Sequence record: NC_054927.1
Source of the DNA: Escherichia phage vB_EcoM_Ozark
DNA length: 64,000 nt
Direction: 5' to 3' (one strand)
A model generated the notes under the pieces. That model did not search any database. It was not told the DNA's origin and saw only the letters and a list, made by a program, of their open reading frames with translations. Numbering within the stretch: the stretch's first letter is position 1; each line of letters starts with the position of its first letter. This document shows, piece after piece, positions 3,995 to 64,000 of the stretch. A program made the position numbers and the translations under genes.

Positions 3995-4130
3995 AGTTTT
4001 GTGAAAAAATTTTTAAAAAGTTTTAGGGAATTCTAGGGTCAGGAGGGGCAATTAAAAGGTAGGATAATATATTATAAAGGGTATAAACTAAATGATGCCT
4101 AGAGAGGCCCGGAAAGGCCTAGATACCAAA

Positions 4131-4157
4131 AAGCCCCAACCTTTCGGTCGGGGCTAA
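4131..4157 (-). terminator. intrinsic terminator hairpin (minus strand)
   Basis: Reverse complement reads AGCCCCGACC-GAAA-GGTTGGGGCT followed by TTTTT; immediately 3' of 4163..4636. Confidence 0.6.
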
Positions 4158-4162
4158 GAATG

Positions 4163-4636
4163 TTATTTGATTTGTTTAGCAGACCAAATGCGGTCTTTAA
4201 TAATTTTTTGGATGTCTTCAACATACTCAAGAGAGTGAGCATGTGGGTTATCTTTAAAACTATAAGCACGAGCTAACTTTTGACCTTCAGTTTTGATTAC
4301 TAAAAGCTCTTTAAGGATAGCTTCATATCTGGAGATAATTCCTTTAACAATATTTTTTTCTTGTGTAGCTTTAGGATCTGCTTTAGGAGCAGGTTTACCC
4401 GAAGCCTTTGCAAAAGCAGCGCCAGTAGCAACTAAACTTTTCCAGGCCATACTAACTGCATTCCCTGTAAATCCTTCGGCTTTCATATCACGAGCAAATT
4501 GGAATCGTGATTCATCGGAAGCATCTTTATAGGAATATTTACCCGCGGCAATGGCTGCTTTTGCGACAGCTTGAATTTCGGTGCTAGACGCTTCATTTAA
4601 CACCGCTTCATTTAAAAATTGAGTATATGATTTCAT
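4163..4636 (-). CDS. candidate capsid-targeted internal protein-like gene
   Basis: 157 aa; N-terminus MKSYTQFLNEAVLNEA resembles the MKTYQEFIAEA leader, with two L-x-E motifs; RBS GGAA; late promoter upstream; Ala/Lys-rich body. Confidence 0.6.
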   Translation of the reverse strand: MKSYTQFLNEAVLNEASSTEIQAVAKAAIAAGKYSYKDASDESRFQFARDMKAEGFTGNAVSMAWKSLVATGAAFAKASGKPAPKADPKATQEKNIVKGIISRYEAILKELLVIKTEGQKLARAYSFKDNPHAHSLEYVEDIQKIIKDRIWSAKQIK

Positions 4637-4674
4637 CTTATTTCCTGTTTTAATTCGTGAATTTAATATACTAA

Positions 4675-4682
4675 TATTTATA
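4675..4682 (-). promoter_or_regulatory. late promoter TATAAATA (minus strand)
   Basis: Plus-strand tatttata about 40 nt upstream of the 4636 ATG, between terminator and RBS. Confidence 0.5.
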
Positions 4683-4691
4683 CTAAAAAAG

Positions 4692-4718
4692 CCCCAACCT
4701 TTTGGCTGGGGCTAAGCC
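4692..4718 (-). terminator. intrinsic terminator hairpin (minus strand), likely end of the tRNA operon
   Basis: Reverse complement AGCCCCAGCC-AAAA-GGTTGGGGCT plus TTTTT; near-identical to the 4131..4157 hairpin. Confidence 0.6.
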
Positions 4719-4765
4719 TTGCGGCAACCTTGTCGGGGTTCCACCTGCTAAGGCAAGTGTTTGTA

Positions 4766-4856
4766 CGAAACGCCGGGATTCGAACCCGGTTATTAAGTAG
4801 TTGACGCTACTCAATATTTTTAAAAGGCCATATCTCAACCATATCCGAACGTTCCG
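4766..4856 (-). ncRNA. tRNA-like stable RNA candidate (acceptor stem plus T-arm, non-canonical body)
   Basis: T-arm CCGGG-TTCGAAT-CCCGG and a 7-bp acceptor pairing CGGAACG/CGTTTCG, but no clean D or anticodon arm; position matches T4 stable RNA species 1/2. Confidence 0.3.
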
Positions 4857-5029
4857 TCAAAAACGCTACTCGGCTTACGGCAAAGATATTTCCTCGAATC
4901 GATAATTCGGTGCGCCGTTTCTGCTGTGATATAAGGGGGCATTAACAAAACATAAAGATTTATTAATGCCAGTCCTTAAACAGGGAACATCAGTCCGACG
5001 ACTTGCCGGTAGCGACCCGGCTTCTTGTC

Positions 5030-5105
5030 TGGTCGAGGCAGTAGGGATCGAACCTACGACCCAGGACTTAGAAGGTCCTTGCTCTTCCTTCTGAGCTATG
5101 CCCCG
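5030..5105 (-). tRNA. tRNA-Arg (anticodon UCU)
   Basis: Hand-folded cloverleaf: acceptor CGGGGCA/UGCCUCG, anticodon loop CUUCUAA, T-loop UUCGAUC, CCA encoded. Confidence 0.8.
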
Positions 5106-5109
5106 TAAT

Positions 5110-5185
5110 TGGGGTGACCGATGGGAGTCGAACCCATGACTACGAGAATCACAATCTCGAGTTCTACCAACTGAACTACGGCCAC
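5110..5185 (-). tRNA. tRNA-His (anticodon GUG)
   Basis: Hand-folded: anticodon stem CGAGA/UCUCG, loop UUGUGAU, discriminator C, CCA encoded. Confidence 0.75.
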
Positions 5186-5299
5186 ATTAATACCTACTCC
5201 AATAATCAAGATGTCTTCACACGAAATTAAGAGAAGAGTGATCAGTTCAACCCCTATAATCGCGTCAAGTAGATATTAATGTGACAGTTGTCACAAATT

Positions 5300-5374
5300 T
5301 GGCGGACGTGATAGGATTCGAACCTATAACCAATCGCTTAACAGGCGATCGCTCTGCCATTGAGCTACACATCC
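5300..5374 (-). tRNA. tRNA-Asn (anticodon GUU)
   Basis: Hand-folded: D-arm GCUC/GAGC, anticodon stem AUCGC/GCGAU, loop CUGUUAA, CCA encoded. Confidence 0.75.
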
Positions 5375-5378
5375 AAAT

Positions 5379-5465
5379 TGGTGGGGAGTGGTGGAGTCGA
5401 ACCACCCGAGTCGCAATGACAATGGATTTACAGTCCACACCGCTACCTCTACGGGATAACTCCCC
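5379..5465 (-). tRNA. tRNA-Tyr (anticodon GUA), long variable arm
   Basis: 87 nt; acceptor GGGGAGU/ACUCCCC, anticodon loop CUGUAAA, T-loop UUCGACU, CCA encoded. Confidence 0.75.
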
Positions 5466-5478
5466 TTAATTCTTAATT

Positions 5479-5553
5479 TGGTGGCCCTGGGTGGAATTGA
5501 ACCACCATCTGGCGATTATGAGTCGCTTGCTTGAACCTTCCAGCTACAGGGCC
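5479..5553 (-). tRNA. tRNA-Ile or Met (anticodon CAU)
   Basis: Hand-folded: acceptor GGCCCUG/CAGGGCC, anticodon loop CUCAUAA; CAU could be Met or lysidine-modified Ile. Confidence 0.75.
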
Positions 5554-5554
5554 T

Positions 5555-5630
5555 TGGTGCTGATTGACGGAATCGAACCGCCGACCTTCTCATTACAAGT
5601 GAGTTGCTCTACCTACTGAGCTAAATCAGC
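5555..5630 (-). tRNA. tRNA-Thr (anticodon UGU)
   Basis: Hand-folded: acceptor GCUGAUU/AAUCAGC, anticodon loop CUUGUAA, CCA encoded. Confidence 0.8.
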
Positions 5631-5635
5631 AAAAC

Positions 5636-5725
5636 TGGCGGAGGCGATAGGATTTGAACCTATGAGTCGCCGGAGCGACTGCCGGTTTTCAAGACCGGTG
5701 CATTAAACCACTCTGCCACGCCTCC
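5636..5725 (-). tRNA. tRNA-Ser (anticodon UGA), long variable arm
   Basis: 90 nt; acceptor GGAGGCG/CGCCUCC, anticodon stem CCGGU/ACCGG, loop CUUGAAA, CCA encoded. Confidence 0.8.
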
Positions 5726-5727
5726 AG

Positions 5728-5801
5728 TCTCCATACAAGGATTTGAACCTTGGACCTCCTGATCCCAAATCAGGCGCTCTACCAAACTGAGCTACACGGA
5801 G
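5728..5801 (-). tRNA. tRNA-Pro (anticodon UGG)
   Basis: Hand-folded: acceptor CUCCGUG/UAUGGAG with G-U pairs, anticodon loop UUUGGGA; CCA not encoded. Confidence 0.75.
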
Positions 5802-5811
5802 TAAATTAAAT

Positions 5812-5885
<74 letters not shown>

Positions 5886-5890
5886 AAATT

Positions 5891-5977
5891 TGGTGCGAGA
5901 AGTGGGACTCGAACCCACAAGGAAATCATTCCGCAGCATTTTAAGTGCTGTGCCTTTACCAATTTGACCATTCTCGC
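5891..5977 (-). tRNA. tRNA-Leu (anticodon UAA), long variable arm
   Basis: 87 nt; acceptor GCGAGAA/UUCUCGC, anticodon loop CUUAAAA, T-loop UUCGAGU, CCA encoded. Confidence 0.8.
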
Positions 5978-5983
5978 GTTATA

Positions 5984-6592
5984 TTATTTATTACGTGAAA
6001 AAGACTGTTCTATCAATTCTGGACACTTTCGTTCTATCCATTTTCTAGCTTTTTGTGGGCTTATACCTATTATTTTAGCAGCTTTACTAACCCATCCAAA
6101 TTTAGAATAATCGATTTTAACTAATTCTTCGTAAATTTCATCAGTTAAAATCTTTTCATTAATATTTACCAGTAAATGATATAATTTGTTATCATTAGCA
6201 ATTTTAATGAATCTTTTATAGTTTCCGCCTTTACTTAAACCTAATGAAGTAATTGCAGATGATATAGTAGCCGAATTTAATAATGCGTTTAAAATTTCTT
6301 CATCACTAACATTATAACGCTTTTTATTATTTTTAATATTTTTACCAGCAAAAGTATCAGTTTGCGAATGACAGTTTGGACATAATAATCTTAAATTTGA
6401 TTTAAGATGATTTTTGTTATTTCCATCAATATGGTCTAATTGCAGAACAATATGCTTATTTTGCCATTTTGAAATTTTACAAATTGCACACTCATATGGA
6501 AAAATATTTTCTTTTATTATTTTGTCTTTCAGCTTTCCTGTACTAAAATTTGGATGTTTTCCTTCAAAAATTTCAGCTAATTTAGTATCCAT
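5984..6592 (-). CDS. HNH endonuclease, likely free-standing homing endonuclease
   Basis: CAIC...LDHIDGNNKNHLKSNLRLLCPNCH is a textbook HNH motif; C-terminal helix-turn-helix-like segment; track start is TTG, moved to ATG (MDTKLAEIF...); stop 7 nt from tRNA-Leu. Confidence 0.7.
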   Translation of the reverse strand: MDTKLAEIFEGKHPNFSTGKLKDKIIKENIFPYECAICKISKWQNKHIVLQLDHIDGNNKNHLKSNLRLLCPNCHSQTDTFAGKNIKNNKKRYNVSDEEILNALLNSATISSAITSLGLSKGGNYKRFIKIANDNKLYHLLVNINEKILTDEIYEELVKIDYSKFGWVSKAAKIIGISPQKARKWIERKCPELIEQSFSRNK

Positions 6593-37901: not shown

Positions 37902-38711
37902 ATGCTTAAAGAACAACTGATTGCCGAAGCGCAGAAAATTGATGCTTCCGTTGCTCTTGATAGTATTTTCGAATCAGTTAATATTTCTCCGGAAGCAAAA
38001 GAAACTTTCGGCACTGTATTCGAAGCTACCGTCAAGCAGCACGCCGTTAAATTAGCTGAATCTCATATCGCTAAAATTGCTGAAAAAGCAGAAGAAGAAG
38101 TAGAAAAAAATAAAGAAGAAGCCGAAGAAAAAGCTGAGAAGAAAATCGCTGAGCAAGCTTCTAAATTCATTGACCATCTTGCAAAAGAATGGCTCGCTGA
38201 AAATAAATTAGCAGTTGATAAAGGCATCAAAGCCGAACTGTTTGAATCCATGCTTGGTGGATTAAAAGAGCTCTTTGTTGAACACAACGTTGTTGTTCCA
38301 GAAGAATCAGTTGATGTTGTAGCTGAAATGGAAGAAGAGCTGCAAGAACATAAAGAAGAATCAGCTCGTCTGTTCGAAGAACTCAATATGCGCGACGCAT
38401 ATATCAATTATGTGCAGCGTGAAGTGGCATTGAGCGAAAGTACTAAAGATCTGACTGAGTCTCAAAAAGAAAAAGTCTCTGCTCTGGTCGAAGGTATGGA
38501 TTATTCAGATGAATTCTCAAATAAATTGAGTGCCATCGTAGAAATGGTGAAGAAGTCTAATAAAGATGAAAGCACTATTACTGAGGGTATAAATACTCCT
38601 GATACTGAAGCAGCCGGACTAAATTTCGTCACTGAAGCTGTAGAAGATAAATCTGCATCTGGTGCAGAAGATATTGTAAGTGTATATGCGAAAGTCGCAT
38701 CTCGTTTCTAA
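37902..38711 (+). CDS. 22: prohead scaffold protein gp22
   Basis: 269 aa acidic coiled-coil protein; late promoter tataaata near 37867. Confidence 0.85.
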   Translation: MLKEQLIAEAQKIDASVALDSIFESVNISPEAKETFGTVFEATVKQHAVKLAESHIAKIAEKAEEEVEKNKEEAEEKAEKKIAEQASKFIDHLAKEWLAENKLAVDKGIKAELFESMLGGLKELFVEHNVVVPEESVDVVAEMEEELQEHKEESARLFEELNMRDAYINYVQREVALSESTKDLTESQKEKVSALVEGMDYSDEFSNKLSAIVEMVKKSNKDESTITEGINTPDTEAAGLNFVTEAVEDKSASGAEDIVSVYAKVASRF

Positions 38712-38729
38712 TTTTAAAGGTTAACACAA

Positions 38730-40295
38730 ATGACTATCAAAACTAAAGCTGAACTTTTGAACAAATGGAAGCCATTACTGGAAGGTGAAGGTTTACCGGA
38801 AATTGCTAATAGCAAACAAGCGATTATCGCTAAAATCTTTGAAAACCAGGAAAAAGATTTCCAGACAGCTCCGGAATATAAAGACGAAAAAATTGCTCAG
38901 GCATTCGGTTCTTTCTTAACAGAAGCTGAAATCGGTGGTGACCACGGTTACAATGCTACCAACATCGCTGCAGGTCAGACTTCTGGCGCAGTAACTCAGA
39001 TTGGCCCGGCTGTTATGGGTATGGTACGTCGTGCTATTCCTAACCTGATTGCTTTCGATATTTGCGGTGTTCAACCGATGAGCAGCCCAACCGGTCAGGT
39101 ATTCGCACTCCGCGCGGTATATGGTAAAGATCCGATCGCTGCCGGTGCTAAAGAAGCATTCCACCCAATGTATGGTCCAGATGCAATGTTCTCTGGTCAG
39201 GGTGCTGCTAAGAAATTCCCAGCTCTGGCTGCTAGCACACAAACCACAGTAGGTGATATCTATACTCACTTCTTCCAGGACACTGGTACTGTGTATCTGC
39301 AAGCTTCTGTTCAAGTAACAATCGATGCTGGTGCGACTGATGCTGCTAAATTAGATGCTGAAATTAAGAAACAAATGGAAGCTGGTGCACTGGTAGAAAT
39401 CGCTGAAGGTATGGCTACTTCTATCGCTGAACTCCAGGAAGGTTTCAACGGTTCTACCGATAACCCATGGAATGAAATGGGCTTCCGTATCGATAAACAA
39501 GTTATCGAAGCTAAATCTCGCCAGCTGAAAGCTGCTTACTCTATCGAATTAGCACAAGACCTCCGCGCTGTTCACGGTATGGATGCTGATGCCGAACTGT
39601 CTGGTATTCTGGCTACCGAAATCATGCTGGAAATCAACCGTGAAGTTGTTGATTGGATTAACTACTCGGCTCAGGTTGGTAAATCTGGTATGACCCTGAC
39701 TCCAGGTTCTAAAGCTGGTGTATTTGACTTCCAGGATCCGATTGATATTCGTGGTGCTCGCTGGGCGGGTGAATCCTTTAAAGCTCTGTTGTTCCAGATT
39801 GACAAAGAAGCAGTTGAAATTGCTCGTCAGACCGGTCGTGGTGAAGGTAACTTCATTATCGCTTCCCGTAACGTAGTTAACGTTCTGGCTTCAGTTGATA
39901 CTGGCATTTCTTATGCTGCACAGGGTCTGGCTACCGGCTTTAACACTGATACTACCAAGTCAGTATTTGCTGGTGTTCTGGGTGGTAAATACCGTGTATA
40001 TATCGACCAGTATGCTAAACAGGATTATTTCACTGTAGGTTATAAAGGTCCGAACGAAATGGATGCTGGTATTTACTATGCTCCATATGTAGCTCTGACT
40101 CCGCTGCGTGGTTCCGATCCGAAGAACTTCCAACCAGTAATGGGATTCAAAACTCGTTACGGTATCGGTATCAACCCATTTGCAGAATCCGCTGCTCAGG
40201 CTCCGGCTTCTCGCATTCAAAGCGGTATGCCTTCTATTCTGAATAGCCTTGGTAAAAACGCTTACTTCCGCCGTGTATATGTTAAAGGTATCTAA
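38730..40295 (+). CDS. 23: major capsid protein gp23
   Basis: 521 aa; N-terminus MTIKTKAELLNKWKPLLEGEG... as T4 gp23; strongly E. coli-optimal codon usage. Confidence 0.97.
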   Translation: MTIKTKAELLNKWKPLLEGEGLPEIANSKQAIIAKIFENQEKDFQTAPEYKDEKIAQAFGSFLTEAEIGGDHGYNATNIAAGQTSGAVTQIGPAVMGMVRRAIPNLIAFDICGVQPMSSPTGQVFALRAVYGKDPIAAGAKEAFHPMYGPDAMFSGQGAAKKFPALAASTQTTVGDIYTHFFQDTGTVYLQASVQVTIDAGATDAAKLDAEIKKQMEAGALVEIAEGMATSIAELQEGFNGSTDNPWNEMGFRIDKQVIEAKSRQLKAAYSIELAQDLRAVHGMDADAELSGILATEIMLEINREVVDWINYSAQVGKSGMTLTPGSKAGVFDFQDPIDIRGARWAGESFKALLFQIDKEAVEIARQTGRGEGNFIIASRNVVNVLASVDTGISYAAQGLATGFNTDTTKSVFAGVLGGKYRVYIDQYAKQDYFTVGYKGPNEMDAGIYYAPYVALTPLRGSDPKNFQPVMGFKTRYGIGINPFAESAAQAPASRIQSGMPSILNSLGKNAYFRRVYVKGI

Positions 40296-55563: not shown

Positions 55564-57621
55564 CTACATTTTGAACTTTTTAGACATTCCGTTAATGTTA
55601 ACCAAAGAAGCTAAGATTTGAGAAACTTCGTTTTCCTCTTCTTTTGATTCTTCTACAAGGAATTGATTAAATCCAGTCATTGGACGAACTTCACCAGTTT
55701 CCATTAGATGGTCGCCATCATATACTGATTCCTCTAATTGTTCAGAAGGAGGAACGATTGTACCTTCTATTAGATACTTGTTATAAGCAGTTTCTTTCAT
55801 AAAGTACGTACTTACTTTATTAATCTTCAGTAAAATTCCGCGCGGTAGAATAACTTCAGCTTCTGATGGAAATCCTGATAAATGACCTGGAACGATAACT
55901 TTGATTCGCTCAGCTCCTTTAATTACCATACCCACGCTAGTTTCAGCATCTTCATTAGCATATGTAGAATGACTACCCATATGCATCAAATCTTCTGCAT
56001 CAACGGAACCTTCTCCTTCACCAGAAAATACTGCACCGGAATCATCTAGAGCCATATAGTTTTTACCATGCTCACCGAAGATATTTGGTTTAAGCGATGT
56101 GGATACGAAGTTCTTGAAATAGAACATTTTATTTTCAATGTTATGACGCAAAGTTTTAAAGGTAACTTCTTGTCCACGGTAAAGTGTAGTTCCTGGAGGA
56201 AGAACTGATCCTTTGGCAAAGGCAGAATCCAACGTCTCGATGTGCTTAATAGCTCGTTCCATGTATTCTTCACGGGTAGAATCTGGTTTACCCAAAAGGA
56301 ACGAGTTCATTTCAACATATGAATCTGCACAATAATCTTCAATTACATCAGATTCAGCTTGGGTTAGTCCTTTTGGAGTTACTTCGGTGCTTGCGTATTC
56401 ATATGCCTGAGCAGCAGATTCATTAATCAATTTATAAATGCCATTCATTACAAATTGAATAATAGCTGTCTTTTCATCTGGCGTAGCTTTAGAACCTTTA
56501 ACTAAATCATTAATAATTTTCTTAATAACATCAAAGCTATTAGAAATATTAATGTCAGCAAGATCGCTTAAAATTTTATCAGTTTTATAATCAAAGAATT
56601 CTTTATTCTTTAAATATTCTTGAGAACCTTGATATGTTATATCGCTCTGCAACTTGATGGATGGATCACGTAAACGTGCATGGGCTAATGCAATGTGATT
56701 TCGGAAGTTTTCTAGTTCATAATCGCTAGATTTAAAACGAGAAGCACTCCTCATGCCACCGATAGCTCCTTTGCTGAAGTTTGAACCAATCTGAATAACG
56801 CCAGAGTTCATTGGTCCTTCTGCTTTATATACCGGAACTTTAGATTCAAACTCTTGATATTTCTTAGCAGCGAAGCTATCACCCTGAAGTGAAGCATCAA
56901 CAGTAGAATATTGAGCTTGTGCTGCTAATCGACGACTAATTTTAGTTTTCTGAATAACAGCTTGGTCCGTGCGCTTATCATTTTCTAAAGCAATAGAAGC
57001 AGCAACAGCAACAGCTTTAGGAACAGCATTACCTGTTTTAATGTCTACATAAACATCACCAACCTTCGATTCAACTTTTGTGAATAACTCAGTTGAAATA
57101 GGAGGTACACCTGGAATGTCTTCTAAATTGGCATTTTTACGGTAAACCATAATATATGCATATTTCTTATCATAGTCCCAGATTTCCTTTAAAAGAACAT
57201 ATCGACCTGCTCCTTTAGTACGTACTAAACGGTCAGCAATAACTTGCATTTGACGAGCTGCGCCATTTGTTTTACTTTTTAGTACGCGGAATAGGCATGC
57301 GTCGATTTTATACTGTTTCATTGTTTGAAGAGCAGTATCAAAAACAGCATTAATGACGCCAATTGGATTTCCACCCAAGTTTCTAAGCTTAACCAGTGAT
57401 AATTTCTCGTTGACACCTATCATTACGATATGCATCATTTTATCGCCTGGCTTAACGTTTTTATTTGTATCACCGCCAGAGGTGTATGTACAAAATCTAA
57501 ATCCAGGAAGCACACTTTCTTCACCAGCTTGAATAGCAAAAATTTGTGGTATTTTATGCTTAGGATTTAAGTTAACAACCGGCGCCGAAGCGCCGTCAAA
57601 TAATTCTGTAATAAGTTCCAT
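55564..57621 (-). CDS. Alt-like ADP-ribosyltransferase, diverged paralog
   Basis: 685 aa; N-terminal MELITELFDG... leader; C-terminal ART motifs (LYRGQ, FVSTSL, SEAEVILPRG); RBS AGGA. Confidence 0.8.
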   Translation of the reverse strand: MELITELFDGASAPVVNLNPKHKIPQIFAIQAGEESVLPGFRFCTYTSGGDTNKNVKPGDKMMHIVMIGVNEKLSLVKLRNLGGNPIGVINAVFDTALQTMKQYKIDACLFRVLKSKTNGAARQMQVIADRLVRTKGAGRYVLLKEIWDYDKKYAYIMVYRKNANLEDIPGVPPISTELFTKVESKVGDVYVDIKTGNAVPKAVAVAASIALENDKRTDQAVIQKTKISRRLAAQAQYSTVDASLQGDSFAAKKYQEFESKVPVYKAEGPMNSGVIQIGSNFSKGAIGGMRSASRFKSSDYELENFRNHIALAHARLRDPSIKLQSDITYQGSQEYLKNKEFFDYKTDKILSDLADINISNSFDVIKKIINDLVKGSKATPDEKTAIIQFVMNGIYKLINESAAQAYEYASTEVTPKGLTQAESDVIEDYCADSYVEMNSFLLGKPDSTREEYMERAIKHIETLDSAFAKGSVLPPGTTLYRGQEVTFKTLRHNIENKMFYFKNFVSTSLKPNIFGEHGKNYMALDDSGAVFSGEGEGSVDAEDLMHMGSHSTYANEDAETSVGMVIKGAERIKVIVPGHLSGFPSEAEVILPRGILLKINKVSTYFMKETAYNKYLIEGTIVPPSEQLEESVYDGDHLMETGEVRPMTGFNQFLVEESKEEENEVSQILASLVNINGMSKKFKM

Positions 57622-57624
57622 GAT

Positions 57625-59721
57625 TTATCCTTGAACGAACTTGTAAGGCATGTTTGTAATATCTATGCAAGACGCAATAATTCCAAGAGATGATTCTACT
57701 TTCTGTTTAACATTTGATGAAACAAATGATGCAAAGTCAACTCTATCTTCTATTTCAATACCACCAGTCATTGCAACTACTTCGCCGGTTTCCATTAAAC
57801 GGTCTCCGTCATAGATTACCGATTCGGTGAGTTCTTCTGTGGTCATAACTTCAGCTTGAATGAGTTTTGTATTATTAGACGTGGTTCCGTCATTATTAGA
57901 AGCATCAGTTATTTTATTAACTTTAACCATCAATCCGCGCGGTAGAATAACTTCAGCTTCTGTTGCTATTCCGAGACTTCCTGGATATACAACATTAACT
58001 TTATGAGCTCCATCAATTGCCCATCCTATTTGAACTTTAACGTATTCAGGATTTTCTTTATACGCTCTTATTTCGTTTGGATTAATAGTTATTCCTTCTT
58101 CATTTTTATCAACCGTTAATTCGTTACGAGCTTCTGGTTCTAAAAGACCAATACCAGCATGTGTAATTCCAAAACGCCCAAAAATGATAGGAGTTAAAGA
58201 AGTAGATACAAAATTTCTGAAATAGAACACTTTATTTTTAACTAGCGCTTCGTATATAGGAGCAGTCATACTTTGAGCACGATAAACTGTAATGCCTTCC
58301 GGTATGCGGTCACCATTTTCAAAAGCTGAATCTAAATTATTTATAGCAGATTCAATTTCTTTTTCACTCATTACATCATATCGTTCTGGATTGTAACGAC
58401 CTAAAAGAAGATTATTGATGTCAGTATATCCTGAACCACAATACTCTCTAATGCCGCGCTTTTGTGATGGAGTATATTTAGAACCATCACGGGCAATAGT
58501 AATATCAATCATTGGACCTGCACCAATTCCAGAAAAACTATAAATCATTCTTTTGAGGAATTTAGTTTTTGCTGCGTTCCAGGAATTTTTAGTCATTTCT
58601 TCCCAGACTTCATCTTGCTGCCCTTTACGAGTTTTATTATGTTTATCAAGCCAATTATCTTTATATTCTTCAAAGAATTTATTAATAGCTGCTGCGTATT
58701 TCTCTAAACATTTTATTGAAGTAGTTGGTTCATTTTTTATCGCGTTAAAAATTACATCTTTAATTTTTTCGGAAACTTCATTAACCTCACTTTTTGAAAA
58801 GAATTTATAGTCATAGTGAAGTTCATTCGCAGTTCCTTCGGCAATAATTTTTGCTGCCTTAGTTTTAGAAGCTAATGAATTAATTCCAAGCTTCATTTCT
58901 TCTGCTTCGGGAATTAAAGGAGCGGTAGCGGGTTTATTGAAATTAGCTGCGGTAGATTCATACTTCTGAAATAATTCACTTTCAAATCTAGAAGATTCCA
59001 ATGACTGACTTTGTGCAATTGCTCTACGGGAAATTTTAACTTTAACGATTACAGCTTGATCAGAACGTTTATCATTTTCTTGCGCAATAGATGCTGCAAT
59101 TGCCTCATTTTTAGTTACTTGAGCTCCAGTATCTTTATTGATATAAACATCACCGACCTTCGATTCAACTTTAGTAAAGAGCTCGGTACTAATTTCCGGA
59201 ACCCCTGGAATGTCTTCTAGTGATACATTTTTGCGATGTATAAGAATATATGCATACTTTTTATCGTAATCCCAGAGTTCCTTAAGAAGGACGTATCTGC
59301 CACCTGAACGACTACGGATAAGTCTATCAGCAATAACCTGAATTTGTCGAGCTTGACCAGCGGTTTTAGACTTAAGAATACGAAGCATACAGGCATCAAT
59401 TTTATACTGACGCATTGTTTGCATTGCAACAGTAAAAACTGAATTGATATAATTAATTGGGCTTGAACCAAGACCTTTCAATTTAGCAATTGAACCTTTA
59501 GCAGTTAATGTAAAAGGAACAATATGCATCATTTTATCGCCCATCTTTAAATCGCGATTAGTATCACCTCCAGATGTATAGGTACATAAACGAAAGCCTG
59601 GTTGTTCAATTGCGTCATCAACATGAACTGAAAAAATTTGTGGTATTTTCTTCTTTGGATTTAAGTTTGTAATCGGAAGAGTAGTATCTTCGTCAAATAA
59701 TTCTGTAATGAGTTCCATCAT
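57625..59721 (-). CDS. alt: Alt ADP-ribosyltransferase (capsid-packaged)
   Basis: 698 aa; MMELITELFDEDTTLPITNL... as I recall T4 Alt; ART motifs (VYRAQ, FVSTSL, TEAEVILPRG); RBS GAGGA. Confidence 0.85.
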   Translation of the reverse strand: MMELITELFDEDTTLPITNLNPKKKIPQIFSVHVDDAIEQPGFRLCTYTSGGDTNRDLKMGDKMMHIVPFTLTAKGSIAKLKGLGSSPINYINSVFTVAMQTMRQYKIDACMLRILKSKTAGQARQIQVIADRLIRSRSGGRYVLLKELWDYDKKYAYILIHRKNVSLEDIPGVPEISTELFTKVESKVGDVYINKDTGAQVTKNEAIAASIAQENDKRSDQAVIVKVKISRRAIAQSQSLESSRFESELFQKYESTAANFNKPATAPLIPEAEEMKLGINSLASKTKAAKIIAEGTANELHYDYKFFSKSEVNEVSEKIKDVIFNAIKNEPTTSIKCLEKYAAAINKFFEEYKDNWLDKHNKTRKGQQDEVWEEMTKNSWNAAKTKFLKRMIYSFSGIGAGPMIDITIARDGSKYTPSQKRGIREYCGSGYTDINNLLLGRYNPERYDVMSEKEIESAINNLDSAFENGDRIPEGITVYRAQSMTAPIYEALVKNKVFYFRNFVSTSLTPIIFGRFGITHAGIGLLEPEARNELTVDKNEEGITINPNEIRAYKENPEYVKVQIGWAIDGAHKVNVVYPGSLGIATEAEVILPRGLMVKVNKITDASNNDGTTSNNTKLIQAEVMTTEELTESVIYDGDRLMETGEVVAMTGGIEIEDRVDFASFVSSNVKQKVESSLGIIASCIDITNMPYKFVQG

Positions 59722-59747
59722 ATCCTCTCTAGTGTTTATTCTATTTA

Positions 59748-59768
59748 TAAAATTAAAGGCCCGAAGGC
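59748..59768 (-). terminator. terminator-like hairpin (minus strand)
   Basis: AAAGGCC-CGAA/TTCG-GGCCTTT hairpin in the gap between alt start and the upstream small ORF. Confidence 0.5.
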
Positions 59769-59770
59769 CT

Positions 59771-59959
59771 TTAATAATCTATTGGTAAGAGAGTACGATA
59801 TATTTCAAACTTTGGACCTTTTTCATAAGCATCAAAAGTTTCTGTGAATTTATTATAAGCATATGCATCTATAAATTCAATCATGATTTGTGATACAGAA
59901 GTAGAAACATCTCCACCTTCTTTTTGAGCCACGACAATTGTTTCTAAGTAAGCTTTCAT
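59771..59959 (-). CDS. hypothetical small protein
   Basis: 62 aa, ATG start overlapping the ligase stop. Confidence 0.45.
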   Translation of the reverse strand: MKAYLETIVVAQKEGGDVSTSVSQIMIEFIDAYAYNKFTETFDAYEKGPKFEIYRTLLPIDY

Positions 59960-61419
59960 AAACCAGTTACCTCATGAAAATCACCAAATACATCCTCGAA
60001 TGTATTAGCTTTAGTTTTATCTTCACGCAAACGAATCGCAATTGGAAGAAATAATTTAACGTAATCAGTGCGGCCATCGGATTTTAACCAACCGTTGCAT
60101 TCGCACTCTAGAATTTTTCCAATATAATAATTTTGGTTTTCCATAATGCGAGTACGGTCAAGTTCATGTGATTTTACGCCGGCTTTATCTTTTAAGCCTG
60201 AACCGGCATTTACCTTAATTTTTCCACACTCTGACTCAAGAATAAATCCACCTGCTTTAGTAGGGTCTTTACGGTGAGGATAAATTCCTACAATTTTTAA
60301 ATCAACATCAATTACTTCTTTAAATTTATAGAGATTTTTTGAACGAGCATTTTCCCATAATCCATCGATATTTTTGAGAATAATACCTTCAAGACCTTGG
60401 TCAATATACTTTTTATAAATTACCTTAGCTTCATCTAGGTTATTTACTACTTGGTTTTCAATTAAAATTACTTTATCATATCCTGATGTCATTTGTTCTA
60501 ATTTAGAAAAACGTACATCATATTTTAAACGAAATGCTGGAAGACCGTATATTTCTACCAACGGAACATAATCCCAGACCTGAAACTTCATGCATTGAGC
60601 TTCTTTTTCTGAAATAGTTCCCTTTAAAGATTTATTAGCGATTCCATTAGAAGTAGTACGTGATTCAGCTACTTCAGCAAACTCTTTAGCTTTACTAATT
60701 TCAGGATAAGCATCAAAAAGAAAATCTAGGCCTTCTGGCTCCTTTTTAACTTGCTCATGGTATACCAATTCGCCATCAATTAACACACCTTCTGGATGAA
60801 TCTGGCGGGCTTCAGCGGTCATTTTGATTAACTCTTCCTTAAGAAGATCTAATCCTAGATATTCATTACCAGCTCGTGATAAAAGACGGACATCATCTAA
60901 TTCATCGCCTCGGACTTCAGCAAAACACCTGGCTCCATCTGCTTTTAACTGTGCAAAGGCTGGAAATTTGATATTCTTACTAATGCCCTTTTCATCATAA
61001 GAACTTGCCAGCATTTGAGGTTGTTCAGGAATTAAACCTGGCCAAACTTTGTTTGCAATAGATACTGAAGCACCGCATTCAAGGTCTCGCATCATCACTC
61101 GACGCAAAACTTCAACATCATCCTTTTTACCATCGGTGATATATCCAGTCAATTCCTCAATTGCAGCATTTCCGGTCAATTTCCGAGTAGCTAACGTGAA
61201 TTCAATGAAGTCAAGCATATCGGTAATGGTCAGCATTCCAAAACTCTGGGTAGCAATACCAGGTTTAGGCCATTTCTTGATATAATACTGTAACCCACGA
61301 GAATAAGTTAGACGATATACTCGTTTAAGCAATTCATTATCTTTATTCTTTTCAAGAATTGCTTGCTTCTGCTTAGTTGATCCAATAGATGCTATTTCAT
61401 TCAGAATTTTAAGAATCAT
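59956..61419 (-). CDS. 30: ATP-dependent DNA ligase gp30
   Basis: 487 aa; adenylation motif LKADGAR (KxDG); length as T4 ligase. Confidence 0.95.
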   Translation of the reverse strand: MILKILNEIASIGSTKQKQAILEKNKDNELLKRVYRLTYSRGLQYYIKKWPKPGIATQSFGMLTITDMLDFIEFTLATRKLTGNAAIEELTGYITDGKKDDVEVLRRVMMRDLECGASVSIANKVWPGLIPEQPQMLASSYDEKGISKNIKFPAFAQLKADGARCFAEVRGDELDDVRLLSRAGNEYLGLDLLKEELIKMTAEARQIHPEGVLIDGELVYHEQVKKEPEGLDFLFDAYPEISKAKEFAEVAESRTTSNGIANKSLKGTISEKEAQCMKFQVWDYVPLVEIYGLPAFRLKYDVRFSKLEQMTSGYDKVILIENQVVNNLDEAKVIYKKYIDQGLEGIILKNIDGLWENARSKNLYKFKEVIDVDLKIVGIYPHRKDPTKAGGFILESECGKIKVNAGSGLKDKAGVKSHELDRTRIMENQNYYIGKILECECNGWLKSDGRTDYVKLFLPIAIRLREDKTKANTFEDVFGDFHEVTGL

Positions 61420-61685
61420 TGTTCATCCTTCAGAGTTTGATTTACAGCTCTATTATAAATCAATTCATCATTAAGCTCAGTCAAAGACCTATGATATGTA
61501 GTTCTAACTTTATTTCCTTGCATCCAGTGCTTGACGTAAATGAAACCTTGCTCTACACATTTTTTAAAAATTCGTTCGTCTTTTTGAGCTCGGAATTCTG
61601 GATTGCATCTAAAAAATTGATTTACGTGACCGTAATCACGTGTAGTATTACCTTCATTTTCATAAATAGTGTGAACGACAAACAT
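61416..61685 (-). CDS. hypothetical protein (30.1-like)
   Basis: 89 aa; ATGA-type overlaps with both neighbours. Confidence 0.5.
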   Translation of the reverse strand: MFVVHTIYENEGNTTRDYGHVNQFFRCNPEFRAQKDERIFKKCVEQGFIYVKHWMQGNKVRTTYHRSLTELNDELIYNRAVNQTLKDEQ

Positions 61686-62518
61686 TAGAATGCTCCTTGG
61701 AAAATATTATCACCACTAGTAAATCTATTAAAATACCCTGCATCACCAGGCTTAGTATAGTTCCATGTCTGAAACGGATGTGTCTGATATAGATGATATG
61801 GATTATAAGGATTAAATCCAGGAGTTCTCCAGGTAGTGTTCCAACGAAAAGAATCGTTTTTAACCATCTTCTCAATTACATCTTTTATAGCTTTTTCACT
61901 ATCAAAACTTTCTTTATTTTCCTTCGGTGAAAAAAGCTTATTTTCTACATCATTCCATGTATAAACTCGCTGAGCGGTTTTTGGAATATTGTCACGCTCT
62001 CCTCGCGCCATCCAATAAACAGGAACATTTAATATTTCACTCGCATGATCGCAGTGGTGAGCGAGATCGTCAATATAACAAATTACGTTATATTTCTCTT
62101 TTGCCTTTTTGAACAACTCTTCTTTTGAAGAATCATGACCACACATCATTACTTCTGAGAAGGCACCAGGAAAAAGAGCATTCAAATTAAATTGACGATT
62201 CAACAGAGCGTCAATAGAATCACCCAACGCTGTAACAGCTACAAAATTATAATCTTCTTTTAATTTGTTAATTACGCACAGGGCGTCTTTATATGGAGAC
62301 AAATAACGAATAAAATCTGAACGATTGTATTTTTCAATTAACTTGACGCCAAGTTCTTCATCACAATTAAAGAGTTTACCCGGAGAAATAAATTTCTCAT
62401 CTTGGATCATTTTTAAAATATGTTCTAACGGAAGATTATATTTCTGAGCAAAATAAGGAAGGCCTGATTGCCAGCTTAAACATACTCCATCAATATCAGT
62501 TAAAATAGTAGGCTTCAT
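61685..62518 (-). CDS. HAD-superfamily hydrolase-like protein (30.2-like)
   Basis: 277 aa; N-terminal ILTDIDGV matches HAD motif I (DxDG). Confidence 0.6.
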   Translation of the reverse strand: MKPTILTDIDGVCLSWQSGLPYFAQKYNLPLEHILKMIQDEKFISPGKLFNCDEELGVKLIEKYNRSDFIRYLSPYKDALCVINKLKEDYNFVAVTALGDSIDALLNRQFNLNALFPGAFSEVMMCGHDSSKEELFKKAKEKYNVICYIDDLAHHCDHASEILNVPVYWMARGERDNIPKTAQRVYTWNDVENKLFSPKENKESFDSEKAIKDVIEKMVKNDSFRWNTTWRTPGFNPYNPYHLYQTHPFQTWNYTKPGDAGYFNRFTSGDNIFQGAF

Positions 62519-62973
62519 AGAGAGTCTCTTAATAGATTTAACACATCAATAAATTCAGCTTCGGTTAGTATTGTATCATCTTTTGTTAGACCACTAGCCA
62601 TGCTGTGCTTCAAAACTTTTCCTTTCGAGGCTTGTAATGCATCACGAAAGCCCTTGTTTTGGATCGCTGCTTCAAAATATGCATTTGTGTATAATTCTTT
62701 CCACGCCGGGGAGTATCTTGAAAACGGAACTCCAATCCAGAAGAGGGTCCCACGGTCCTGAGCTCTAGCATAAGACCTTCCAGCTTGTTGGGCGGCAAGC
62801 CCGGATAACCCAAATATACGACGTTGTTGTTCAACATTTTTCACCTTACACCCTTGGAGGAATCCTTCAAGACCTCCAAATTGAATACCATCCATAACGA
62901 AAGGCCATTGGGCGAAATTACTTAATGCGCATGATGGCCATCTAAAATTACTTCTAATCTCTAACTCAGACAT
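62515..62973 (-). CDS. NADAR / YbiA-like (DUF1768) domain protein (30.3-like)
   Basis: ALSNFAQWPFVMDGIQFGGLEGFLQGCK resembles the FSNF...W-P...DG...E-x-F-Q-x-x-K signature of YbiA/NADAR proteins; track start is TTG, first ATG two codons in. Confidence 0.55.
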   Translation of the reverse strand: MSELEIRSNFRWPSCALSNFAQWPFVMDGIQFGGLEGFLQGCKVKNVEQQRRIFGLSGLAAQQAGRSYARAQDRGTLFWIGVPFSRYSPAWKELYTNAYFEAAIQNKGFRDALQASKGKVLKHSMASGLTKDDTILTEAEFIDVLNLLRDSL

Positions 62974-63172
62974 TTTCAATGCTTATAATTTCAACATCAG
63001 CCCAATGACCATAGCAAGGAAGACGAAATTCAACTGGCCAGTTAGGGTCCTTTTCTAATATAATAGACTTAACTTGTGGTTCTTCGTGTTCATCAGTATA
63101 CGGATTTTTATCTGTTACTTTATATGTGACCTTAATGTACTGAATTCCAAAAATCTTATTAATTATATTCAT
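62966..63172 (-). CDS. hypothetical protein
   Basis: 68 aa, ATG start. Confidence 0.45.
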   Translation of the reverse strand: MNIINKIFGIQYIKVTYKVTDKNPYTDEHEEPQVKSIILEKDPNWPVEFRLPCYGHWADVEIISIENV

Positions 63173-63366
63173 ACTAATTCCTTTAATCCGTAGATAGGAG
63201 ATAATTCATCACCCATACGAAGGTCTTCATTTCCATCTACCCAGGAAACAATATAAGCCTCTTTTATTTGAATACCACTCCATTTAAATGGAGGTAGAAC
63301 CTTAGAAATTAATCCAGGTATACCAACTCCCTTTAATTCAACGGTTTGACCTAAAAAGAATTTCAT
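63169..63366 (-). CDS. hypothetical protein
   Basis: 65 aa, ATG start. Confidence 0.45.
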   Translation of the reverse strand: MKFFLGQTVELKGVGIPGLISKVLPPFKWSGIQIKEAYIVSWVDGNEDLRMGDELSPIYGLKELV

Positions 63367-63653
63367 TAAAACCTCATCTGAAAACCATGCGATTTAACGT
63401 TACCACCGCCAATATCAGAAATATTAATTTCACGCGCAATTGAAGGGTCAATGTCAATTTCACGATTGAGTTTAGTGATAGCTAAAGTATCGCGCCCATT
63501 TACAGTACGGAACTCTAAAGGACAAACCACATCAACGTAGTTTTTAATCGATTCACTAGTAGGCTGCAAATGAGCAGGAAGGTCTTTAGGCGCCTTTGAG
63601 AAAACCACTTCACAGAAATTTTTGCGGGTATCAAAATAAGTAGTCATAAACAT
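63366..63653 (-). CDS. hypothetical protein
   Basis: 95 aa, ATG start. Confidence 0.5.
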   Translation of the reverse strand: MFMTTYFDTRKNFCEVVFSKAPKDLPAHLQPTSESIKNYVDVVCPLEFRTVNGRDTLAITKLNREIDIDPSIAREINISDIGGGNVKSHGFQMRF

Positions 63654-63695
63654 AATATTTTCCTCAGTAAGGGGCCGAAGCCCCTCATTTTATTT

Positions 63696-63947
63696 TTAAA
63701 TATCAAATTCGTTAAGAACTACATCAAAGATTGCTTCCAAGTGCTCAGGTTTAGCTTTGTTACTCAGAATATGACGAATCCAAGTTTTAACTAAGAGTTT
63801 ACGATTAGCACCATTCCAGCAAGGATGAGTCCCTAAATCGCGTTGGCGGAAATCATCATCCAGAGCGATTTTGAAGTTGGAACCTTTCATCGTGATTGAA
63901 ACCGTGATACCGTTTTCAAATCGCATATAAACGTAGTTAGGAGTCAT
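63696..63947 (-). CDS. hypothetical protein
   Basis: 83 aa, ATG with GGAG RBS. Confidence 0.5.
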   Translation of the reverse strand: MTPNYVYMRFENGITVSITMKGSNFKIALDDDFRQRDLGTHPCWNGANRKLLVKTWIRHILSNKAKPEHLEAIFDVVLNEFDI

Positions 63948-64000
63948 ATACTGTTCAATTTCGCATACTGATCCGTTTTGATGTTTCCAGAGGCAAATAG
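63944..64000 (-). CDS. 3' end of an upstream minus-strand gene (partial)
   Basis: Open frame from window edge ending ...DQYAKLNSI-stop, with ATGA overlap to the next gene. Confidence 0.3.
   Translation of the reverse strand, partial: LFASGNIKTDQYAKLNSI

Follow-up and report, generated by a model that had tools for sequence, protein, structure and literature searches.

The 64,000-nucleotide stretch of the genome of Escherichia phage vB_EcoM_Ozark analyzed here (NC_054927.1; in the following, the window) contains two adjacent open reading frames (ORFs) on the minus strand, 62515-62973 and 61685-62518, encoding proteins of 152 and 277 amino acids. A preliminary description made from the sequence alone had singled out this pair as a NADAR/YbiA-like protein and a HAD-like hydrolase next to ADP-ribosyltransferase (ART) genes, and both ORFs were found again at the same positions. 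The region 61400-63200 is 97-98% identical to phage teqdroes and to hundreds of Tequatrovirus relatives. On this similarity the source genome is classed as T4-like (Tequatrovirus), and the annotation of the T4 genome identifies the two ORFs as genes 30.3 and 30.2. They belong to a tightly packed array on one strand with the order 30.4, 30.3, 30.2, 30.1 (DUF3045), 30 (ligase), alt.1 and two Alt-type ARTs. Start and stop codons overlap, with 8 nucleotides shared between 30.4 and 30.3, an ATGA (62515-62518) between 30.3 and 30.2, and a TAATG between 30.2 and 30.1. The locus can be read as a T4-like 30.4-30.3-30.2-30.1-30 array whose genes are probably translationally coupled.

In T4 numbering, gene 30.3 starts with the ATG at 62973; the program-made ORF list starts it two codons earlier, with a TTG at 62979. 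The protein has the same length as T4 gp30.3 (NP_049816) and is identical to it at 150 of 152 positions, the two substitutions, both conservative, being L80I and I125M. It matches PF08010 (Phage_30_3) with 234 bits against a cut-off of 36, far beyond chance (E-value in Table 1). Its motif string reads LSNF...WP...DG...EGFLQGCK. Of the NADAR pattern given in the preliminary description, the WP, DG and E-F-Q-K elements are present, but the first element reads LSNF and not FSNF. When 43 relatives were aligned, LSNF, E36-G-F-x-Q, H123 and the TxLT-xx-EF segment were invariant, and K43 was conserved in at least 90% of the sequences. All 43 matched PF08010, and 16 of them also matched Pfam NADAR. 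The catalytic residues E36, K43 and H123 are encoded at 62866-62868, 62845-62847 and 62605-62607, respectively. The protein is of full length with an intact C-terminal helix (residues 138-151).

A PDB search with the single gp30.3 sequence gave no match. The family profile identified E. coli YbiA (2b3w, E = 0.0046), with SNF and E-x-F-Q-x-x-K aligned and the stretch from E36 to K43 placed on the YbiA segment EHYFQAQK. The AlphaFold model of gp30.3 has a predicted local distance difference test (pLDDT) score of 93. In a Foldseek search with this model, only 2b3w, 8bat and 8bau were matched at a probability of at least 0.99; the solved NADAR structures are these three, namely YbiA, the NADAR of Geobacter lovleyi and a Phytophthora NADAR with ADP-ribose. 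The best structural match was YbiA, with a template modelling score of 0.68 (E = 8e-5). Profile searches and a comparison of the predicted structure with YbiA had been proposed along with the preliminary description, and both bear out the NADAR call: a NADAR match was obtained, the catalytic Glu (E36) can be aligned and the model fits 2b3w. The YbiA label, in contrast, holds at the level of the superfamily and not of the subfamily. The Glu in the last strand of the YbiA subfamily was not found in gp30.3, which has the invariant H123 instead; that H123 corresponds to this third catalytic position follows the literature and not a superposition. In NADARs the position is occupied by Glu (YbiA), Asp (BC4488 family) or His (phage clade), and replacement of the subfamily-defining Glu by His in phage NADARs was reported by Schuller et al. 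(2023). Within the NADAR superfamily, gp30.3 is assigned by its sequence to the phage gp30.3 clade, outside the YbiA subfamily.

Gene 30.3 also contains a 75-amino-acid ORF in another frame (62610-62837, minus strand), which is annotated as 30.3' in T4. This frame is open only in close T4 relatives, with a length of 53-75 amino acids and shifting starts. More remote NADAR genes do not keep it open, and it probably arises as a side effect of constraint on the main frame.

The removal of ADP-ribose from DNA guanine by the T4 protein and its role in counter-defence against DarTG1 have been described (Schuller et al., 2023; Toxins, 2024; Johannesman et al., 2025; HIDEN-SEQ, 2025). NADARs reverse the ADP-ribosylation of guanine that DarT1 catalyzes (Schuller et al., 2023), and T4 gp30.3 hydrolyses guanine-linked, but not thymidine-linked, ADP-ribose in vitro (Toxins, 2024). 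Gene 30.3 was renamed adfN and is necessary and sufficient for the DarTG1 resistance of T-even phages; purified AdfN strips ADP-ribose from DNA, and the protein is impaired by E36A, by K43A and by loss of the C-terminal helix, the latter being a natural defect of RB69 (Johannesman et al., 2025). Independently, 30.3 insertions were lost under DarTG1 in a T4 transposon screen, with a log2 fold change (log2FC) of -7.25. Because E36, K43, H123 and the full C-terminal helix are kept in gp30.3 of the window, we infer with high confidence from its sequence that its function is the same as that of T4 AdfN. During infection, host DarT1 would put ADP-ribose on guanine of the phage DNA and AdfN would cleave that N-glycosidic bond, which would let replication proceed in hosts carrying DarTG1. 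The phage of the window is predicted from the AdfN identity to resist DarTG1. Counter-defence against host DNA ADP-ribosylation was the first of two mechanistic options in the preliminary description and is the published one, experimentally established for the 99%-identical T4 AdfN; the main points of the interpretation given there are supported. Both AdfN and the way it works were already published in 2023-2025 and the NADAR part adds nothing new to them, but it is a real anti-defence enzyme that could be recovered by reading the sequence alone.

Like adfN of T4, with which it shares the catalytic residues and the C-terminal helix, the window gene lies between 30.4 and 30.2. The two genomes differ in that the window phage has two full Alt paralogues downstream, whereas T4 has one and remnants. 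With the NADAR antitoxins associated with DarG1/DarT1 (BC4488 family, e.g. Geobacter lovleyi 8bat), gp30.3 shares the fold, the Glu and the Lys and, as shown for the T4 protein, the reaction on guanine-linked ADP-ribose in DNA. It has His where these antitoxins have Asp, and unlike them T4 AdfN fails to relieve DarT1 toxicity in cells that are not infected. The arrangement of DarTG1, with a NADAR beside DarT1, was not found at the locus, where the 30.3 gene adjoins 30.4 and 30.2. The nearest ARTs are of the Alt type and lie about 2.8 kb away with four genes between. The 30.3 gene is an orphan antitoxin-like gene with no adjacent DarT, and its product is a NADAR of the DarG1-like kind.

The neighboring protein gp30.2 begins with MKPTILTDIDGV and is identical to its T4 homologue at 264 of 278 positions. 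Its match to phrog_420 (E = 1.2e-90) is likewise far beyond chance. The reading of ILTDIDGV (residues 5-12) as HAD motif I in the preliminary description proved correct, as motifs I-IV are conserved and the model matches only HAD structures. The motifs are D8-x-D10 (I; 62489-62497), T96 (II), K132 (III) and D150-D151 (IV). Among 41 relatives D8, D10, G11 and K132 were invariant and T96, D150 and D151 at least 90% conserved; among 111 more distant relatives D8, D10, R108 and K132 were still invariant. In the AlphaFold model, in which pLDDT exceeds 90 over residues 1-195, a helical C1 cap, about 75 residues long (16-86), follows motif I and sits on a Rossmannoid HAD core. A second Asp in motif I (Asp+2) is a sign of phosphoryl-transfer HADs and not of dehalogenases. 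Because this residue (D10) is present, gp30.2 is read as a phosphoryl-transfer enzyme. Judged by its motifs and model, gp30.2 is a genuine HAD phosphatase, predicted to be catalytically intact and to have a C1-capped fold, and it would act as a Mg-dependent phosphomonoesterase.

Residues 196-277 form a tail with one predicted helix (207-220), followed by a disordered stretch rich in F, N, T, P, W and Y; pLDDT is below 50 for residues 228-277. Most homologues are 190-220 amino acids long, align to residues 1-195 only and lack the tail. Most differences between gp30.2 and its T4 homologue, an indel among them, fall in this variable tail, which may serve for interactions. Some remote family members carry large extra regions (P0255, 591 amino acids; P0318, 660; P0206, 430; P0244; P0082), in which no Pfam domain was found, so that they give no functional hint. 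On a 58-kb contig, the gene of P0255 has a DNA polymerase I gene in its vicinity.

The best PDB match of the close-family profile of gp30.2 was mouse cdN, and the extended motif DxDGVLxx[W/F]xSGL is common to both. An exhaustive profile search collected about 1,400 clusters at 50% identity. Pfam NT5C (PF06941) was matched by 7 of 41 close and 35 of 111 distant relatives. One of these 35 sampled relatives, P0346, exceeds the curated threshold (32.3 bits against a cut-off of 24.8), and it matches the gp30.2 profile with 3e-20. The profile of the wider family aligned over the full length with the putative 5'(3')-deoxyribonucleotidase 3bwv of S. epidermidis (E = 3.5e-7). On these profile links gp30.2 is placed putatively in the NT5C 5'(3')-deoxyribonucleotidase-like family, as a branch that has diverged. 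It has the C1-capped HAD fold and the extended motif I in common with the NT5C enzymes (human and mouse cdN, mdN; 3bwv), but it is only ~15-20% identical to them and has the additional disordered C-terminal tail of about 80 residues. The favored substrate is a small nucleotide-type, (d)NMP-like molecule, a proposal with about an even chance of being right. A literature search on the name gp30.2 returned no papers; the protein adds a new, uncharacterised member to a known enzyme superfamily.

Conceivably, gp30.2 has a functional analogue in T5 Dmp, the dNMP 5'-phosphatase with which phage T5 counters Kongming defence; the common trait would be an early phosphatase of phage origin that acts on nucleotide pools. 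A homology between the two was rejected (hhalign probability 1.7%), and Dmp has no Pfam match; a placement of Dmp in NT5C could not be confirmed. The phage phosphatases countering NAD+ depletion by aRES were also discarded as kin, being Macro-domain enzymes unrelated to HAD, and NARP3 is unrelated as well. That gp30.2 is an unrecognised nucleotide-pool or counter-defence enzyme with a role seen only on particular hosts is rather unlikely. It might then remove a toxic or signalling defence nucleotide (compare Dmp and Kongming) or serve ligase-linked DNA repair.

To place gene 30.2 in its context, 80 viral loci with a 30.2 homologue were scanned with profiles for NADAR, ligase and Alt, and dereplication at 70% identity reduced them to 25 lineages. 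A ligase gene was found near the 30.2 homologue in 75 of the 80 loci before dereplication and in 23 of the 25 lineages after it, directly adjacent in 22. NADAR was present within 6 kb in 10 lineages and adjacent in 6, and Alt was nearby in 18. The pairing with ligase includes lineages in which ligase lies upstream and not downstream (L088-L090, L007). The order is NADAR-HAD-ligase in an Acinetobacter phage and HAD-ligase, without NADAR, in a Shewanella phage and in another T4-like lineage; in one distant lineage the ligase is upstream of the HAD, and a NADAR of a jumbo phage has no HAD neighbor. With hhalign, neither hidden NADARs beside the HAD in NADAR-less contexts nor a hidden HAD beside the jumbo-phage NADAR were found. 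The individual contexts agree with the lineage counts, from which it is concluded that the DNA ligase gene is the stable partner of 30.2 and that NADAR is an accessory insertion upstream. The 30.2-ligase pairing is possibly only conserved gene order; its persistence is a modest lead for T4 biology.

The pairing would have an enzymatic basis if gp30.2 were an end-healing 3'-phosphatase that prepares nicks for DNA ligase, comparable to the PseT phosphatase domain with RNA ligase. Besides the adjacency to ligase, which extends to the rearranged lineages with an upstream ligase, a weak match of gp30.2 to a PHROG polynucleotide kinase family (E = 0.002) would fit such an activity. However, the model of gp30.2 has a helical C1 cap. 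HADs with a C1 cap generally act on small molecules, and phosphatases of the PNKP type have no cap. Moreover, the profile links of gp30.2 lead to NT5C nucleotidases, PseT is already encoded nearby in T4-like genomes, and the ligase adjacency may be mere conserved gene order. An end-healing function of gp30.2 is therefore regarded as unlikely.

Another explanation connects gp30.2 with AdfN: HAD and NADAR would form a two-step module, in which gp30.2 is the T-even partner of AdfN and, for example, processes a phosphorylated ADP-ribose product or adduct. Indeed, 30.3 and 30.2 share the ATGA overlap, and every close relative of T4 has them side by side. T4 AdfN rescues neither uninfected cells nor non-T-even phages, and an extra T-even protein was suggested by the authors of that work. 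The T4 transposon data argue against gp30.2 being this protein. On K-12, 72 of 72 TA sites of 30.2 were hit and the gene was fully dispensable. Insertions in 30.2 were neutral under DarTG1 (log2FC -0.12, p = 0.61), where 30.3 insertions were lost, and were also neutral in M9 minimal medium (log2FC -0.10, p = 0.61), which makes 30.2 dispensable in LB, in M9 and under DarTG1. Because these insertions are neutral, gp30.2 is ruled out as a non-redundant partner of AdfN. In addition, a NADAR within 6 kb is limited to the 10 HAD-bearing lineages mentioned above, and NADARs outside T4-like phages occur without a HAD neighbor. On the transposon data and the co-occurrence counts gp30.2 was rejected as the additional T-even protein needed by AdfN; for T4 and DarTG1 the two-step module is already largely refuted, and it is considered very unlikely. 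Instead, gp30.2 would stand outside the AdfN mechanism, and the gene to which it is evolutionarily linked is that of DNA ligase. Besides 30.3, a significant but mild depletion under DarTG1 was seen in the T4 transposon data for 30.4 alone (log2FC -1.79, adjusted p = 0.014). This may reflect a polar or translational-coupling effect on adfN; gp30.4 could also be a T-even factor that aids AdfN.

The Alt genes of the window are two full-length tandem paralogues (55564-59721, minus strand) of 685 and 698 amino acids. In T4 there is a single alt, accompanied by the decayed duplicates alt.-1 and alt.-2; two or three Alt-like ORFs occur at several related loci. The preliminary description had pointed to two Alt writers within about 3 kb of the NADAR gene, which agrees with the distance measured here to the nearer one, and its second mechanistic option was a modulation of the phage's own ART output. 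As a writer-eraser pair, the NADAR would erase or tune the marks of the phage's own Alt enzymes. Apart from this short distance, Alt is nearby in 9 of the 10 NADAR-positive lineages, and T4-like NADARs are expressed early along with ARTs (Iyer et al.). The idea conflicts with the specificity of NADARs for guanine adducts, because all tested members, T4 gp30.3 included, act on guanine-linked and not on thymidine-linked ADP-ribose in DNA. Alt modifies arginine in proteins. Furthermore, alt insertions were neutral under DarTG1 in the T4 transposon data, adfN is not needed on K-12, a host in which Alt is active, and Alt also occurs in 9 of the 15 NADAR-negative lineages, which makes the association indistinguishable from conserved gene order. 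Modulation of the phage's own ART output thus found no support, and an Alt writer-eraser pair is highly improbable. The functional grouping of HAD, NADAR and Alt implied in the preliminary description does not hold either, as 30.2 and alt are both neutral under DarTG1 and 30.2 co-occurs far more with ligase than with NADAR. The closeness of Alt to 30.3 would instead reflect the conserved gene order of the T4 early region. Finally, there is next to no chance that gp30.3 is an N-glycosidase of the YbiA type with a housekeeping role, whose substrates are intermediates of the riboflavin pathway and not DNA adducts: YbiA 2b3w is its best fold and profile match and has SNF and E-x-F-Q-x-x-K in common with it, but the Glu of YbiA is replaced by the invariant His of the phage clade, the physiological roles differ, and the T4 protein clears ADP-ribose from DNA, its loss sensitising T4 specifically to DarTG1.

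Taken together, it is very probable that gp30.3 is AdfN, that gp30.2 is a separate HAD enzyme and that the closeness of the Alt genes is conserved gene order. Several points weigh against this view. For 30.2, the transposon data exclude no more than a non-redundant requirement, in T4 and with one DarTG1 system; both the ATGA overlap and the reported need of AdfN for a T-even infection context would fit a co-function of the two proteins. By itself, gp30.2 has no sequence match in Pfam (even at E <= 1), NCBIfam or PDB, its placement near NT5C draws on family profiles and transitive links, and a ranking by fold cannot tell NT5C from other C1-capped HADs. Finally, AdfN of the window is not the experimentally studied T4 protein but differs from it at the two substituted positions (L80I, I125M). 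The remaining lead at the locus is gp30.2, which has intact motifs, is widely conserved and linked to ligase, yet is dispensable in the laboratory.

The features of the locus are summarized in Table 1.

Table 1. Genes and gene segments from 30.4 to the Alt paralogues in the window.
Feature	Coordinates	Strand	Remarks
Gene 30.4	62966..63172	-	68 aa; phrog_2042 E 2e-35
Gene 30.3 = adfN	62515..62973	-	152 aa; PF08010 E 4.5e-70
Gene 30.2 catalytic core, residues 1-195	61934..62518	-	predicted C1-capped HAD phosphatase, NT5C-like
Gene 30.2 C-terminal tail, residues 196-277 + stop	61685..61933	-	mostly disordered in model
Gene 30.1, DUF3045, 89 aa	61416..61685	-	PF11243 E 2.9e-64
Gene 30, ATP-dependent DNA ligase	59956..61419	-	PF01068 E 2.4e-32
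Alt-type ADP-ribosyltransferase paralogue 1, 698 aa	57625..59721	-	PF03496 (ADPrib_exo_Tox) E 2.1e-37; Alt-like in teqdroes annotation
Alt-type ADP-ribosyltransferase paralogue 2, 685 aa	55564..57621	-	PF03496 (ADPrib_exo_Tox) E 5.8e-20; Alt-like in teqdroes annotation

A scan of 59700-64000 for promoters and terminators gave the same counts as shuffled sequences. The sole terminator-like site within this region is a perfect GC-rich hairpin (AGGGGC-CGAA-GCCCCT) at 63670-63685, located in the short gap between 30.7 and 30.6 and called on the plus strand. Elsewhere in the window, two 2-kb bins, 4001-6000 and 38001-40000, have a G+C content of ~0.43 compared with a background of ~0.33-0.39.

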